In this document: in pieces, positions 41,288-48,158 of the stretch
Layout: each line of letters starts with the position of its first letter
Position numbering within the stretch: the stretch's first letter is position 1
Assembly: GCA_016699425.1 (NCBI GenBank)
Contig: CP064975.1
Location: 789,698 to 853,697, forward strand
Length of the DNA: 64,000 bases
Source: Candidatus Moraniibacteriota bacterium
Lineage (GTDB): Bacteria; Patescibacteriota; Minisyncoccia; Moranbacterales; UBA1568
Direction of reading: 5' to 3'
The notes under the pieces: model-generated
What the model saw: only the letters and a program-made list of their open reading frames with translations
What the model was told of the DNA's origin: nothing
The model's database searches: none
Position numbers and translations under genes: made by a program

Positions 41288-42478
41288 TTACTTGATGATT
41301 TTTGTCGCGACACCGGCACCGACGGTACGACCACCTTCACGGATAGCAAAACGCATACCCTCTTCCATGGCGACCGGAGCGATGAGCACGATCTTGAGTT
41401 TCACCGTGTCACCTGGCATGACCATTTCCGTCCCCTCCGGGAGGATGACTTCGCCGGTCACATCCGTCGTCCGAATATAGAACTGCGGCTTGTAGCCTTT
41501 GAAGAACGGGGTGTGACGGCCGCCTTCTTCCTTGTTCAGGATATAGACTTCGCCCTCAAATTCAGTGTGCGGAGTGATTGATCCAGGCTTGGCCAACACC
41601 TGGCCGCGCTCGACGTCTTCCTTTTTGATACCCCGGATGAGGAGACCGGCGTTGTCACCTGCCTGGCCACGGTCGAGTTGCTTGTTGAACATCTCGATAC
41701 CGGTCACGACCGTCTTGGCTGTGTCACGGATACCGACGATTTCGACTTCTTCGTTGATATTGACGACCCCCCGCTCGATTCGGCCAGTGACGACGGTTCC
41801 ACGGCCTTCGATGGAGAAGATGTCTTCGATCGGCATGAGGAACGCCATTTCTGTGTCACGGACTGGTTCTGGGATACGCTCGTCAAGTGCCGCGACGAGG
41901 TCGAGGATCGGCTTGGCATCGGCGTCATCGATTGACTTGGACTCAAGTGCCTTCAGACCACTCCCACGAATGACCGCGGCATTGTCGCCATCGAAATCGT
42001 ACTTGGAAAGAAGTTCGCGGACTTCGGCTTCGACGAGGTCGATAAGCTCGGCATCGTCCACCATATCCACCTTATTGAGGAACACAACGATGTTCTTCAC
42101 ACCGACCTGGCTCGCCAAGAGGATATGCTCACGCGTCTGCGGCATCGGACCGTCTGTTGCAGACACAACGAGAATCGCACCGTCCATCTGGGCGGCACCA
42201 GTGATCATGTTCTTGATATAGTCCGCGTGGCCAGGACAGTCGACATGCGCGTAGTGGCGTTTGTCGGACTCGTACTCACAGTGAGACGTCGAGATAGTGA
42301 TACCGCGCTCCTTTTCCTCCGGCGCCTTGTCGATCTCGTCGACACCTTTTTCCTTGGCAAAGCCCTTCATGGAGAGCACGTGAAGGATGGCGGCCGTCGT
42401 GGTCGTCTTACCGTGGTCGACGTGACCGATCGTGCCGACGTTTACGTGCGGCTTAGTTCGCTGAAATTGCTCTGCCAT
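41288..42478 (-). CDS. tuf: elongation factor Tu
   Basis: [26 protein letters not shown]; ATG at 42478 (track ORF starts at upstream GTG). Confidence 0.95.
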
Positions 42479-42798
42479 ACTGTTGACTGACACCCGAAGC
42501 CGTCTTTGACGACTTTCTTGTGTACATCATTAAGTAAATGATTGATTACGAAAAATTTTTCATTTTCCTGGTCCGTCCTCACCAACAGACAAAAACGGCT
42601 CAGGAAAGCGTCAATCAGGATAATAGCAAGGAGAAAAAATCCTGTCAACCCCAGCACCCTTTCTACAAAAAAATAGTCCCTTCTTCGTGTTTATGCCGTG
42701 AAGTGGCTATGCCTTTTGTCTTCAAATTACTCGAGATTCTCCTCTGAAATGGTGCGGGGTCAAGTCCAGCCCTGTTTCACGCCGTAAACCAGTCTTCC

Positions 42799-43221
42799 TT
42801 AGTATTTTCCAAAGGCCTTCAGGAGCGCATCACGACATGCCTTGCCGTGTGGCGATCCAGGGAAACCAGCCATTCTCCCTTCTTTTATACTTCCATCCGG
42901 GAGAGAAATAGTCGCAATGATTGTGTACACTTCTAATTCATCGGGTGGCATATATTGAAACTGAGCAGCGGCACCGGACGCAAGCGTATTGAGTGTCTTG
43001 GCTATTGCTTTCTTATCAAATTCTGTCACAACAACTCCTCTCTCAAAGAAGAGGTCACCCCCTGTCTCTGCTTGAGATTCGGACGGGAGTGCCTCGAGTA
43101 CTGCACCCGCCGCCGCAGCACCCGCTACCTTTAGAAATGTCCGCCGACTCATAACCGCTTTATCTTCCGGGGAAAGTTCCTTTTCTGTTGGAGCCGAGGA
43201 CACGCTCTCAAAACCTAGCAT
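42799..43221 (-). CDS. Tat-signal exported hypothetical protein
   Basis: SRRTFLKVAGAAAAGA twin-arginine motif. Confidence 0.55.
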   Translation of the reverse strand: MLGFESVSSAPTEKELSPEDKAVMSRRTFLKVAGAAAAGAVLEALPSESQAETGGDLFFERGVVVTEFDKKAIAKTLNTLASGAAAQFQYMPPDELEVYTIIATISLPDGSIKEGRMAGFPGSPHGKACRDALLKAFGKY

Positions 43222-43749
43222 AAGGAGGATTTTAGAAATTATCTACTTTCCTTATTCTACACCTCTTTCAGGTTCAATATGAATAGCCCCCTCATCACTC
43301 CACATATCCAAGACCAGTGATGCCCTGATGGCCCTTCTGAGTGGGATTTCCTGATTATTCTTAAATGAAGATCCCGCGGCGGCTGATGCCACACGCGGGA
43401 TATCGGAATTTCTTGCTGACTTTAATCTGGAAGCTACTCGATGAACATCCCATAATAGCCATCGGGAGCCACGCGGAACTGATGCGGGGCTTGTTTCGCC
43501 CCTCCTTCATATCCCCACACATAGGACGTCCGGGGTACCCATTCTTCCGCCCTCACCAGCTTTCCGTACCGCGTACACTCCTCCCATTCCCTGTCAGGAG
43601 TAAAGACGTACACGCAGTACTGAACACCCGTTTCCGGATGCGCCATAAACGCCAGTGAGATCAAGGATCGATATGTGAGGCGTTGCCAGTGCTCCTTTCT
43701 CATGCGAGCGATGAGTGTGAAGAAAGACGCTGGATAAATCGGGACAGTA

Positions 43750-44954
43750 GTTACCGTTACCTTTTCAGTTGATAGTAGGACGCTTTTTTTCAAAAAGTTT
43801 TACTGCTTCTACGCCTAGTTTTACTAATGTCTCAGGCCAGCGAGCCTGTTTTTTGATACTCAAAGAGAGTGAAGGGTAACCGTTCAAATATTTAAATTTA
43901 GCTTCACAATCTGTAAAAGGCTTGGTTCTCCTCCGTATCATCCACGCATTCAACCAACACTGAGCCGAAGCAAAACTCTGAAAACCCTTGATCGTCTTCA
44001 GCCTCCCATTGAGATGGGAATTGTAGAGTTCAATGAGATTGGTGTTGTTGGGACAGCCTGGCAGCAGCAAGTAATTGAAGAGTTCCTCCTGCCGGTACGC
44101 TATCTCACTTACGATGTTTTTGAGCAGACGTTTCTCTCTCTTGATGCTCGCGGCAAAAGATCGAATGGCGTTCGTCACATCCTCTCGTTCTCCAAACACG
44201 CTCTCCTTGAGAGCGTAAAAGAAGGGCCGGTATCGCTCTTCACTCCGCACCCGTAAAGCCACCCGGATATTCTCCAGGTAGTGGTTGTGGCAGAGCTGCA
44301 GCCGAGCCGACGGAAAAACCTTCAGGAGAGCCTTTTTCAGGCCAGAGCGGTCATCGGCGACCACGATCTGAAGATCATAGCCAAGTTGCTTCACTTGATG
44401 GAAGAAACGTGAGAAGGACACCTCATCTTCCGCTGTATACAAAGCCCCGAAGGGAATATCGTGGGTCAAGTAATCAATGCCGTAGAGAAAAGGAATCTTT
44501 CTCGCAAAGCCTTTGACCGCCACATACTTCCCATCCATGACAAGGATGCCCGAGAAGCGTCTCGGGTCACAGAGGGTTTGCGTCAGAGCGTCATTGGAAG
44601 GAAGTTGTGCTAATTCTCTTGTAACTCTCACGAAGGCTTGTTTTCCCGAGAGACCATATTCATCTCCTAATTTACGAAACGGTACCCCATCAATATGCTC
44701 GATCCACAGCAGTCTCGGATCATGCCCGAAGTAACGAGAAAAAGAATGTTCACAAGCACGACACAGGTAGTGATGGCTGTAGCCTTGGGAGCCATTCTTC
44801 ACCGTCTCACGACTGCTGCAGCGGGGACAGTGACGTGACCATTTTTTTTGACATGCTGAATGAAATTTAAGGCTTAAAGTCAACTTTACAGCCGGTTTGA
44901 GGCTCTAGTCTAACAAGAACAACACTTTCCATCAACTGAAAAGGTAACGGTATC
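43750..44954 (-). mobile_element. IS element (IS1/IS1595-like) with 24-bp terminal inverted repeats and 9-bp target-site duplication
   Basis: IRL 43750-43773 G[T]TACCGTTACCTTTTCAGTTGAT, IRR 44931-44954 reverse complement (1 mismatch); TSD GGGACAGTA at 43741-43749 and 44955-44963. Confidence 0.8.
43765..44883 (-). CDS. DDE transposase with N-terminal zinc ribbon
   Basis: CPRCSSRETVKNGSQGYSHHYLCRACEHSFS resembles IS1 InsA / IS1595 zinc finger; fills the IS. Confidence 0.7.
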   Translation of the reverse strand: MTLSLKFHSACQKKWSRHCPRCSSRETVKNGSQGYSHHYLCRACEHSFSRYFGHDPRLLWIEHIDGVPFRKLGDEYGLSGKQAFVRVTRELAQLPSNDALTQTLCDPRRFSGILVMDGKYVAVKGFARKIPFLYGIDYLTHDIPFGALYTAEDEVSFSRFFHQVKQLGYDLQIVVADDRSGLKKALLKVFPSARLQLCHNHYLENIRVALRVRSEERYRPFFYALKESVFGEREDVTNAIRSFAASIKREKRLLKNIVSEIAYRQEELFNYLLLPGCPNNTNLIELYNSHLNGRLKTIKGFQSFASAQCWLNAWMIRRRTKPFTDCEAKFKYLNGYPSLSLSIKKQARWPETLVKLGVEAVKLFEKKRPTIN

Positions 44955-45476
44955 GGGACAGTACGGCCGTCAGAAAACCTATCGGTCGTTACCTGCACGT
45001 AATAGTCACCGGCCACTGCTCCGTTAAAGCGATCTCGCACGCTTACAACGCATGTCTCTGCAGCGGGCAGCTGGTTATGTTTCACCAGTACATCCAGCAG
45101 GGCCACATCGGCGGCACTGAACGTAATTCCCGCCAAGGTAATCAAATCAGCGAGACTCCCCTGAAGACCCACGAAAGGCTCGATCAAATAGTCGCCAGAC
45201 GACATAGCAGCTCTCCCTCTTGGTTGGTGGTAAGGTTCTTCCCGTTCCGTAGTTTTACGGAAGTGCAAGATATCATAAAACTATTTCTCTAGGCAAACGC
45301 CCCACGCGTCCAAGAGAATCAAACAACTTTTTCGTACGAGTCAGAAATGCCCCCATTACAAAAAACTCGTCCTTTTTAATGAGCTCCCGACCTTGTCGGG
45401 CAGCAGGAGAGAGGCGATGTAAAAGCCCGGGAAGGACCCGGGCTTTTACGTACGCTGACTCAAATTTGCTGGAAAA

Positions 45477-47585
45477 TTATTTCTCTTCTTTGGCCGCTCC
45501 ACCCGTCTTGGCACCCATGATTTCTTCCGCCACGTTCCGTGGGACTTCCGCATAGTGAGCGAATTCCATGGAGTAGCTCGCCCGGCCCTGACTCATCGAG
45601 CGCATTTGAGTCGCATAGCCGAACATGCTGGCGAGCGGAACTTCGGCCGTTACTTCCTTCACACGCGCATTGCCCTCGCCCCGGTCGGTCATTTCCTTGA
45701 TGATGCCACGCTTCGCATTCAGGTCGCCGACGATATCGCCCATGAAGCTCTCTGGCATAATAACGGCGACTTTCATGATCGGCTCGAGGATGATCGGCTT
45801 GGCGCGCCGCATTGCCTCCTTGAAGGCAAGCGAACCGGCGATCTTGAACGCCGCTTCGGATGAGTCGACGTCGTGGAATGATCCGTCATAGACCGTCGCC
45901 TTCACATCGACGACCGGATAACCCGCCAAGACACCCGTCTGGGTCGCCTCTTCGATGCCCTTGTTGATCGGCTTGATGAATTCCTGTGGGATGACACCGC
46001 CTTTGGTCTCGTCGAAGAATTCATAGCCCTTACCCTGCTCATTCGGCTCGAGCCGGATCCAACAATGGCCGTACTGCCCGCGACCACCCGACTGACGGAC
46101 ATACTTGCCTTCGGCTTGAGCCATCTCACGAATTGTTTCACGATAAGCGACCTGCGGTCGACCGACATTCACTTCGACTTTGAATTCGCGACGCATGCGA
46201 TCGACGATGATATCGAGGTGCAGCTCGCCCATACCCGAGAGGATAGTCTGGCCCGAGTCTTCATCCGTGTGAACGCGGAAGGTCGGATCTTCTTCGGAAA
46301 GTTTCTTTAAGGCAACGCCCATCTTTTCCTGATCAGCCTTCGTCTTCGGTTCGACTGCGATATCGATGACCGGCTCCGGAAAGACAATGTTTTCGAGAAT
46401 CACCGGCGCTTCTGGATCACACAGCGTATCACCGGTCATGGTCGCCTTCATCCCAACGAGGGCACCGATATCACCAGCTGCGAGATCTTCGATGTCCTCA
46501 CGATGATTAGCATGCATCCGGAGGATACGACCGATTCGTTCCTTTTCATTTTTTGTGGAATTGAGGACATACGATCCAGCCTTGACCGTACCGGAATAGA
46601 CACGGAAAAAGGTGAGCTGGCCGACGAATGGGTCGGTCGCGACCTTGAACGCGAGCGCGGAAAATTTTTCGTTGTCGTCAGTCTTGCGCTCCACTTCCTG
46701 CTCGGTCTTGGCATCGATGCCCGTAACTGGTGGAATATCGACGGGTGACGGGAGATAATCGACGACCGCATCGAGCACGAGCTGAACGCCTTTGTTGCGG
46801 AGCGCCGTCCCCGTCATGACCGGATGGAGTCGGACCTCGATGGTTGCCTTACGCAGAGCCGCCTTCAGTTCCGGCACAGAGATTTCAACCCCCGAGAGGA
46901 ATTTCTCGGTCAGCGCATCATCGCTCTCGGCGATCTTTTCCACCATTTTCTCGCGCCACTCTTTGGCCTTCTCGGCGTATTCAGCCGGGACCTCGCTTTC
47001 AATTACCTTCTCACCCATCTCCCCTTCAAAGGTATAGGCCTTCATGGTCATGAGGTCGATGAGACCGTAAAAGTCCCCACGGAGGCCGAGCGGATACTGG
47101 ATCGCGACCGCGTTCGGCGTAAGACGATTCCAAATAGACGTCAATGCATCTTCGAAGACAGCCCCTTCCTTGTCGATCTTGTTGATGAAACACATGCGCG
47201 GCACTTTGTATTTTTCCGCCTGGCGCCAGACCGTCTCGGACTGCGGCTCCACGCCTTCCTTGCCATCGAACACAACCACACCACCGTCGAGGACACGGAG
47301 AGAGCGTTCCACTTCTACCGTAAAGTCCACATGTCCGGGTGTGTCGATGATATTGATATGGTGGTCCTTCCAGTAGCACGTCGTCGCGGCGCTGGTGATG
47401 GTGATACCACGCTCCCGCTCCTGCTCCATCCAGTCCATGGTCGCCTCACCTTCGTGCACCTCGCCGATCTTGTGCGTGATGCCAGTGTAGAAGAGGATAC
47501 GCTCAGTCGTCGTCGTCTTACCGGCGTCGATGTGCGCGATGATACCAATATTGCGATACTTCTCGATGGCGATTTTACGGGGCAT
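45477..47585 (-). CDS. fusA: elongation factor G
   Basis: [23 protein letters not shown], full five-domain length. Confidence 0.95.
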
Positions 47586-47690: not shown

Positions 47691-48158
47691 TTACGCGAAA
47701 TGAGCGAAGGCCTTGTTGGCTTCGGCCATGCGGTGCGTCTCATCGCGTTTCTTCATCGCCGAACCAATCTTGTTCGAAGCATCGATCAGCTCATCGGCGA
47801 GCTTGTTGGCCATCGACTTTCCCTTGCGGTTACGGCAAGCATCGCGGATCCAGCGCATAGCGAGGACTTGGCGCCGTTCGCCCGAAACTGGAACTGGGAC
47901 CTGATAGTTGGCCCCACCGACACGACGGCTCTTCAATTGGAGCAACGGCGCGACATTCTTGATGGCCTGCTCAAAAGTGTTGAGACCGGCTTTTTTGGTC
48001 CGCTCGGCGATGATATCAAACGCATCATAGATGATCCGTTCGGCCGTACTCTTCTTGCCCGCCCACATGATCATCCCGACAAAATGCCCCACGAGCGGGT
48101 TCCCGAAACGGGCATCCGCCTTCCATTCCTTATCAAACTGTCGTTTTCTCCGTGGCAT
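47691..48158 (-). CDS. rpsG: 30S ribosomal protein S7
   Basis: conserved S7 blocks. Confidence 0.95.
   Translation of the reverse strand: MPRRKRQFDKEWKADARFGNPLVGHFVGMIMWAGKKSTAERIIYDAFDIIAERTKKAGLNTFEQAIKNVAPLLQLKSRRVGGANYQVPVPVSGERRQVLAMRWIRDACRNRKGKSMANKLADELIDASNKIGSAMKKRDETHRMAEANKAFAHFA

Follow-up and report, generated by a model that had tools for sequence, protein, structure and literature searches.

Insertion sequences (ISs) of the IS256 family, which is reportedly the p-MULT 1 group of Guerillot et al. 2014, are described in ISfinder as elements of 1.2-1.5 kb with a single open reading frame (ORF), terminal inverted repeats (IRs) of about 24 bp that start with G, and target duplications of 8-9 bp. 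IS1 elements measure about 770 bp and carry insA and insB', which a ribosomal -1 shift at an A6C motif joins into InsAB', and the IS1595 family is characterized by an ISXO2-like DDE domain and an 8-bp duplication. The IS1447 and IS630 groups are IS elements with programmed transcriptional realignment. The locus considered here is an IS of 1205 bp, with its transposase on the minus strand, at positions 43750-44954 of a 64,000-nucleotide stretch (the window, to which all positions refer) of contig CP064975.1, part of a metagenome-assembled genome (MAG) of Candidatus Moraniibacteriota. We consider it highly probable that this is an intact, recently transposed element of the IS256/Mutator superfamily, whose transposase would depend on a slip within a run of eight adenines (A8) and which would move by a copy-out/paste-in route.

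Boundaries, copies and recent movement

The ends of the element are defined by IRs of 22 nt (43752-43773 and 44931-44952) with 100% complementarity, and the 22-mer is present at these two sites only across the window, where shuffled sequences predict none. Extended to the tips, the arms are 24 nt long with a single mismatch at position 2, and on the plus strand GTTACCGTTACCTTTTCAGTTGAT at the lower-numbered end faces ATCAACTGAAAAGGTAACGGTATC at the other. The right tip, GTTACCGTT, has a T in place of the A found at position 2 of the left tip, GATACCGTT. These two tips are found throughout the related elements, which are 1150-1240 bp long, and the asymmetry of GA on the left and GT on the right is kept in about 55 of 57 of them. 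The comparison set for these and the following clade-wide results comprised eighty metagenomic loci, two loci from genomes of the Candidate Phyla Radiation (CPR) and one locus on a 699-kb contig. Judged by this conservation, the single IR mismatch looks like a functional left/right asymmetry and not a mutation.

A perfect 9-bp direct repeat, GGGACAGTA, stands directly outside both ends, and re-inspection of the sequence upheld both this duplication and the 24-bp IRs with one mismatch that a preliminary description of the locus had reported. Taken letter by letter, the direct repeat extends over 12 nt (ATCGGGACAGTA, 43738-43749 and 44952-44963), and on the right side its ATC is the element's own tip (...GGTATC). 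Because the ATC tip is kept beside unrelated flanks in independent copies and the duplications in relatives are of 9 bp, the duplication is one of 9 bp and its 3-nt extension is a coincidence. The ATC before the left duplication equals the element's right tip, and boundary calling could be misled by it. Perfect 9-bp duplications were also found at 14 of the 47 loci with both flanks, as well as on the 699-kb contig (L094), and the remaining two-flank loci have 4-9 mismatches, as chimeric contigs would show. No target consensus is apparent among the duplications of the relatives.

Copies of the element were found on 11 independent short-read contigs (L001 and L004-L013) from at least eight unrelated sequencing runs, all exactly 1205 bp long with the same tips and 0-6 differences. 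Their surroundings differ, with at least eight distinct sequences on the left side and five on the right. Nine of the 11 differ from the window copy at one base (43780) and by no indels; the window copy is thus 1 nt in 1205 away from the commonest copy, which stands beside at least eight other left flanks. The occurrence of identical ends beside so many flanks places the boundaries firmly at 43750 and 44954 and points to a very recent spread, which bears out the recent transposition that had been read earlier from the perfect duplication. The left and right flanks inside single short-read contigs do not match, as is expected where repeats have been collapsed, but one further 9-bp duplication could be rebuilt across contigs, as TCCTTTGCG stands both to the left of the copy in L009 and to the right of that in L008. 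Only one copy lies within the window. A genome-wide count, suggested in the preliminary description, gives seven transposase accessions from the same MAG contig in one 99%-identical cluster; taken solely from this cluster membership, the host genome encodes about 6-7 transposases of the element (~0.6% of the genome). Exact look-ups of the 372-aa ORF and of IPJ68_04335 gave no record.

The insertion splits a gene that can be rebuilt exactly in frame. With 43750-44963 taken out, the fragments on either side form a single open frame (...DGRTVPIYPAS...), in which T-V-P is encoded on both sides of the element, as had been noted from the sequence before. Counted from the ATG at 45205, the restored ORF has 185 aa, and a TTG further upstream would extend it to 206 aa; its frame has the top codon-usage score among the six frames. 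The same reconstruction makes it extremely unlikely that a long-read assembler misplaced a repeat copy here. Such an artefact would agree with the homopolymer errors in other MAG copies and with the insertion site not being seen in other public assemblies, but a perfect 9-bp duplication whose excision restores a 185-codon ORF would not arise from it.

A zinc-ribbon subgroup of the IS256 superfamily

The catalytic part of the transposase belongs to the IS256/Mutator type. Pfam Transposase_mut (PF00872) matches it with 43.8 bits (gathering threshold 21, E 2e-11), MULE also matches, and PF00872 is precomputed on 120 of the 120 homologues listed. The NCBIfam IS256 model is the top model in 40 of 40 clade members tested (best member E 1.4e-21), the Zn-binding variant NF048019 likewise matches 40 of 40, and NF048018, named IS256_N_4Cys, exceeds its cut-off (28.3 versus 27), while the IS1249 model gives 27.6 against a cut-off of 300. 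A family profile built from 20 sequences matches the ISCth4 transposase (PDB 6XG8, E 1.5e-4) and aligns ISCth4 D241, C262/H265 and E348 (residue identities from PMC7780238) to the clade-invariant D167, C188/H191 and E275. Residues are numbered on the 362-aa product of the corrected frame described below, with 10 to be added for the 372-aa ORF that starts at TTG. The first catalytic aspartate, D107, was assigned from the DGK motif within the alignment range of Pfam MULE and NCBIfam only; D107, D167, C188-x2-H191 and E275 are all invariant across the clade alignment.

The predicted structure is in line with this placement. The AlphaFold model (pLDDT 81, pTM 0.77) comprises a ribbon of three strands, helices and a core of the RNase-H type that carries a helical insertion; in the ribbon region, beta strands lie at residues 27-51. 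ISCth4 chains account for each of the top five Foldseek matches in the PDB (E 5.6e-10 to 1.5e-7, TM 0.50-0.54, about 300-356 columns), and the next matches are generic integrase cores with TM of about 0.2. An exhaustive profile search of 1.84 billion representatives returned 804 relatives, 73 of them with E<=1e-30, and no relatives were found in viral contigs. The element is accordingly a divergent, zinc-ribbon subgroup of the IS256 superfamily and not a member of IS1 or IS1595, and judged by NCBI models and the literature, without comparison to ISfinder, its clade is provisionally unnamed.

The preliminary description had called the element IS1-like, on the strength of a zinc ribbon of the IS1-InsA/IS1595 type and of the 9-bp duplication. 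The zinc ribbon itself (residues ~18-50) is of that type, as the NCBIfam model IS1_IS1595_Zn (NF050000) gives 28.5 bits over a cut-off of 28, and Pfam Zn_ribbon_InsA gives 17.4 bits, under its gathering threshold of 26.1. A 9-bp duplication is compatible with IS1, and the A-rich recoding site proposed below resembles the A6C frameshift of IS1. The likeness ends there, however, and an IS1-family identity is very improbable. The IS1 transposase model NF033558 covers residues 19-50 only (21.4 bits against a cut-off of 100), and Pfam and NCBIfam scans of the transposase gave no match to DDE_Tnp_IS1 or DDE_Tnp_IS1595. The core is instead Transposase_mut/MULE with a CxxH insertion domain, its fold is nearest to ISCth4, the element has 1205 bp against about 770 bp and a single ORF with no insA/insB', and the shift required would be +1 at codon 3-4 against -1 between two domains. 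The 9-bp duplication, for its part, fits IS256 equally. For the catalytic domain, IS1 identity is refuted by the core models and the ISCth4 fold. Membership of IS1595 was also rejected, with no ISXO2-like DDE match and a duplication of 9 bp here and in 15 relatives as against 8 bp.

IS256-family elements including ISCth4 move by copy-out/paste-in via a circular intermediate (PMC7780238). By analogy with that family, the DDE transposase would bind the 24-bp ends and the element would probably move by the same route, with staggered target cuts 9 bp apart giving rise to the duplication. Both the duplication of 9 bp and the ends, which begin with G, are consistent with copy-out/paste-in.

The out-of-frame start codon and the A8 tract

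The transposase ORF has 372 codons (43765-44883, minus strand), and its sole in-frame start is a TTG. The only ATG preceded by a Shine-Dalgarno (SD) sequence, at 44854-44852, is one base off register with the zinc-ribbon ORF, and the transposase strand reads ...CAGC ATG TC AAAAAAAA TGG TCA CGT CAC TGT CCC CGC TGC. Once one A is removed from the run (A7), the ATG opens a 362-aa product, MSKKWSRHCPRC..., with the domain order zinc ribbon, helix-turn-helix and RNase-H-like DDE core (D107, D167, E275, C188/H191); AAGAAGAA denotes the A8 variant in which the run is broken and the frame offset kept. The earlier statement that a 372-aa transposase fills the element thus holds as far as the ORF is concerned, but it needs a TTG start specific to one lineage, with the conserved ATG out of frame.

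In the mechanism proposed here, translation would start at the ATG, and full-length transposase would arise only upon frame correction inside A8. The likeliest route would be a slip of RNA polymerase on the T8 template that drops one A, and the unslipped mRNA would yield a 15-aa peptide. Such a slip would keep the transposase scarce even under read-through of operon transcription into the element, and the sequence pattern suggests that transposase synthesis is throttled by programmed transcriptional slippage.

This arrangement is found in nearly all relatives. ATG-N2-3-A7-9 with the ATG out of frame is present in 46 of 47 distinct relatives, the exception being L039, which is in frame and has A9. 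The run after the ATG (at about nt 100) is A8 in 38 of the 47, A7 in seven and A9 in two, and all of the 50 distinct elements compared have at least seven consecutive A within nt 80-125, although Lys codons elsewhere in the genes are AAA in just 69% of cases. In 41 of the 47, the stretch from the preceding stop to the CxxC is free of in-frame ATG, GTG and TTG codons; in several relatives a main-frame TAA or TGA overlaps the ATG or the A-run, and in many a GAAAGGA-like SD lies upstream of the ATG. Unslipped, the ATG frame of the relatives encodes peptides of 5-33 codons. The two relatives found by scanning genome contigs, from Doudnabacteria and from an uncultured MAG, have 46-48% protein identity, and the out-of-frame ATG and A-run are kept at this distance in CPR genomes. 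The same arrangement occurs on the 699-kb contig, together with a perfect duplication. Distant relatives (P0133, P0135, P0142, P0159 and P0234; profile E 1e-23 to 1e-122) have in-frame starts, for example MVKRRNPKCPKC or MTKKRRHFKCPKC, so the out-of-frame A8 state seems to be derived in the core clade.

These alignments indicate that the clade has kept the out-of-frame state while diversifying and transposing, and the clade-wide out-of-frame start with its A8 is, as a sequence observation, a well-supported and modestly novel one. The broader proposition, that a widespread clade (in CPR and in soil, sediment and wastewater metagenomes) has lost its in-frame start and depends on a slip two bases past the ATG, we regard as somewhat better than an even bet. 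Public gene calls for the clade (1375 homologues) are mostly 305-345 aa long or begin inside the zinc ribbon. The called starts are internal Met, Val or Leu codons, with the zinc ribbon often missing, and one protein carries the source name 'ribosome modulation factor'.

The direction of the required correction bears on how it might be achieved. Correction would require one base to be lost (or two to be gained) in 39 of the 47 relatives and one to be gained in seven. Antonov et al. take mixed shift directions within one transposase family as a mark of transcriptional realignment, ribosomal frameshifts keeping their direction among orthologues (PMC3711429), and the presence of both directions in this family favours transcriptional realignment over a ribosomal frameshift. 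Ribosomal +1 frameshifting or sliding on AAA AAA A would draw on the slipperiness of tRNA-Lys on A runs and on a main frame that is +1 relative to the ATG in those 39 relatives. We nevertheless think it quite unlikely, since seven members need the opposite direction, the zero frame has no slow or stop codon after the slip site (the next codon is ATG or ACG), and no stimulatory structure is predicted.

The length of the run in individual copies raises the question of a switch at the DNA level, driven by replication slippage, in which A8 would be OFF, A7 or A9 ON, and rare ON copies would make the transposase. In favour of such a switch, homopolymers are well known as contingency loci, the annotation gives three further MAG copies an in-frame start (MSKKW...), and L039 is in frame with its A9. 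However, all 11 copies on Illumina-derived contigs carry A8. Compared with the Illumina consensus, the MAG copies outside the window (P0124-P0129) show no differences other than shorter homopolymers, for example A7 for A8 at the start, A6 for A7 near the stop (with read-through into the flank) and A4 for A5. As the A7 copies also carry such other contractions, which cut the protein short and are typical of nanopore consensus error, they are probably long-read errors and A8 the true state. ON copies would moreover be those that are copied, yet 46 of 47 lineages are OFF, and a phase switch is thus improbable. The transposase stop codon, TGA (43765-43767), falls within the right IR, so that shortening of the nearby A7 run lets the ORF continue past the element end into the host sequence. 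This is the case in P0124, whose C-terminal extension (...VTVTSPPPPNW) matches the right flank of contig L004, and that insertion site is thereby found in independent data as well.

The window copy could also do without recoding, if the TTG at 44883 were to start the 372-aa protein and the A8 were read as two Lys codons. The ORF is open from this TTG to 43765 and includes the complete zinc ribbon. The TTG is confined to a near-identical lineage (the window copy, L001, L004 and L006), most relatives being without it and 41 of 47 without any in-frame start, and no SD-like sequence precedes it, whereas the ATG, its distance of about 100 nt from the end and the A-run persist in relatives with as little as 46% identity. 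A start at this codon is therefore unlikely to explain the locus.

Set against slippage-dependent expression in an IS256-type element are this TTG and several further results. Conservation is the support for a slip at the A-run; runs of A9-10 are often quoted for efficient slippage, and A8 is shorter. A stimulatory hairpin beside the run was not detected, as the fold is no better than that of shuffled sequences (z = 0.12), and RNAalifold found no consensus structure in 46 5' regions. The three other MAG copies with A7 are annotated in frame, with exactly the N-terminus MSKKWSRHCPRC... of the corrected product. The best full-length model, NCBIfam IS256 (NF033543), gives 58.2 bits and does not reach its cut-off of 150, the second-best, NF048019, gives 47.8 bits against 150 over positions 2-177 of 304, none of the 40 clade members tested scores much higher, and identity to annotated plasmid IS256 family transposases is only 22-26% (tblastn). 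Scores under the NCBI IS256 cut-offs mark a divergent clade without an NCBI name, and its distance from canonical IS256 makes the family-level transfer of mechanism an extrapolation. Finally, a search of 5.8 billion proteins with the reconstructed protein did not find the empty site in public data.

Upstream of the start, the motif TGnTAnnnT (nt ~40-48) occurs in 31 of the 46 distinct 5' regions compared, at the same position in 26, and may be an extended -10 promoter. A consensus promoter scan of the element gave nothing at threshold, and an Rfam scan of the element gave no matches. Many clade members have an AT-rich palindrome (TTTAAC-NN-GTTAAA or ATGTTT...AAACAT) at nt ~60-85, between the putative -10 and the SD. 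The palindrome in the window, TTTAAGCCTTAAA at ~44870-44885, could be an operator or a weak hairpin, with no significant predicted RNA structure.

Genomic setting and comparison with known systems

The host, a member of the Moranbacteria within the CPR, is represented by a MAG of ~1.2 Mb (contig of 1,217,328 bp). The element lies within the fusA-tuf stretch of the str operon and in the same orientation as the operon, with the gene order rpsG, fusA, split orphan gene, an ORF with a twin-arginine translocation (TAT) signal, tuf and, further on, rplC, and with every neighbour on the minus strand (Table 1). The fusA-tuf interval (42799-45205) holds two lineage-specific ORFs in an otherwise conserved str operon. 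The reconstructed 185-aa protein, searched against 5.8 billion proteins, matched its own two fragments only, with no intact allele and no homologue, and the target is therefore an orphan gene. The IS could be polar on tuf or be transcribed via read-through from the operon. Because the element lies in the path of str-operon transcription, a limited transposase output would be useful.

Table 1. Positions of the element, its parts and the neighbouring genes in the window
Feature	Position	Strand	Remarks
Complete insertion sequence	43750..44954	-	Homology with 11 contigs (L001, L004-L013) ends exactly here; flanks unrelated
Left terminal inverted repeat (IRL, transposase orientation)	44931..44954	-	Reads GATACCGTTACCTTTTCAGTTGAT; tip GATACCGTT conserved in the clade
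Right terminal inverted repeat (IRR)	43750..43773	-	Reverse complement GTTACCGTTACCTTTTCAGTTGAT; tip GTTACCGTT conserved in the clade
Target-site duplication, copy 1	43741..43749	.	GGGACAGTA
Target-site duplication, copy 2	44955..44963	.	GGGACAGTA
Predicted transposase gene	43765..44854	-	ATG 44854-44852, putative frame change in A8, stop 43767-43765
A8 tract (T8 on plus strand), proposed slippage site	44842..44849	-	Two bases past the ATG
Short unslipped ORF from the ATG	44807..44854	-	MSKKMVTSLSPLQQS*, 15-aa peptide
Candidate promoter, TTGATG, 17 nt, TG-T-TAGACT (extended -10-like)	44907..44935	-	Predicted from sequence
Orphan gene, N-terminal part	44964..45205	-	Annotated IPJ68_04345, whose frame continues into the element
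Orphan gene, C-terminal part	43434..43740	-	Annotated IPJ68_04335, starting at a TTG inside the element
rpsG	47691-48158	-	
fusA	45477-47585	-	
Small ORF, 140 aa	42799-43221	-	TAT signal
tuf	41288-42493	-	

An IS insertion in a MAG is as such ordinary. The present analysis shows that a CPR genome of 1.2 Mb harbours an active multi-copy IS, here within the fusA-tuf stretch. For a clade that has no NCBI model name it defines the ends, their conserved asymmetry and the duplication of 9 bp. It also corrects the family, as a zinc ribbon by itself does not make an IS1 element. The out-of-frame ATG with its A8 is a testable candidate for programmed transcriptional slippage and would explain the truncated public gene calls. 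In the searchable literature, nothing was found on slippage at an A-run in IS256-like elements, on a slip site at codon 3-4 with an upstream product of just 5-33 residues, on the clade of the element or on CPR IS elements. If true, the dependence on a slip would represent a minimal transcriptional-slippage throttle close to the start codon that is new for IS256-like elements. Automated annotation would then truncate essentially every clade member, and correct calls of the clade's transposases would require a recoding rule in pipelines and IS databases alike.

Compared with described elements, the IS resembles the IS256 family in its single transposase gene, Transposase_mut domain, length of ~1.2 kb (1205 bp), 24-bp IRs and 9-bp duplication, as well as in a DDE triad with a helical insertion domain that carries CxxH between the second D and the E. 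ISCth4 of this family (PDB 6XG8/6XGW/6XGX) is the best structural match. It departs from IS256 in its 22-26% identity, in scores below the NCBIfam equivalog cut-offs and in a start codon out of frame with the ORF, and from ISCth4 in an N-terminus that is a four-cysteine zinc ribbon and not the ISCth4 N-terminal domain. The NF048019/NF048018/IS1249 group likewise joins a four-cysteine domain at the N-terminus to an IS256-type core, but the match to NF048019 is partial, the scores for NF048019 and IS1249 lie under their cut-offs, and the clade is separate from them. With IS1 the element shares the type of zinc ribbon, which forms its DNA-binding head, the 9-bp duplication and the proposed limitation of output by a slip on an A-rich run, and it differs in catalytic domain, size and gene layout. 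The IS1 shift joins two functional ORFs, whereas here the site would be at codon 3-4 and the upstream 'ORF' is a 15-aa peptide.

Among the prokaryotic Mutator-like elements, the ISMich2 group (p-MULT 4) has a conserved frameshift required for the full-length transposase (PMC3942029). That group is another p-MULT family, and its -1 shift lies between two substantial ORFs and was read as translational (PMC3942029). A parallel to the slip itself is found in the IS1447/IS120 subgroup of IS3, where loss of one A from an A7-A9 run restores the transposase frame (PMC6211511). In experiments on IS1447, one A is lost from or gained by the A9 run in ~16% of transcripts each, only the deletion yields full transposase, and A7 suffices (PMC6211511). 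IS1447 is nevertheless an IS3-family element, in which the run lies at the OrfA/OrfB junction, gives OrfAB and has a hairpin adjacent to it (PMC6211511), whereas none is predicted here. The present clade has in common with realignment of the IS1447 type a conserved homopolymer of at least seven A/T at the frame junction and the occurrence of both shift directions within the family.

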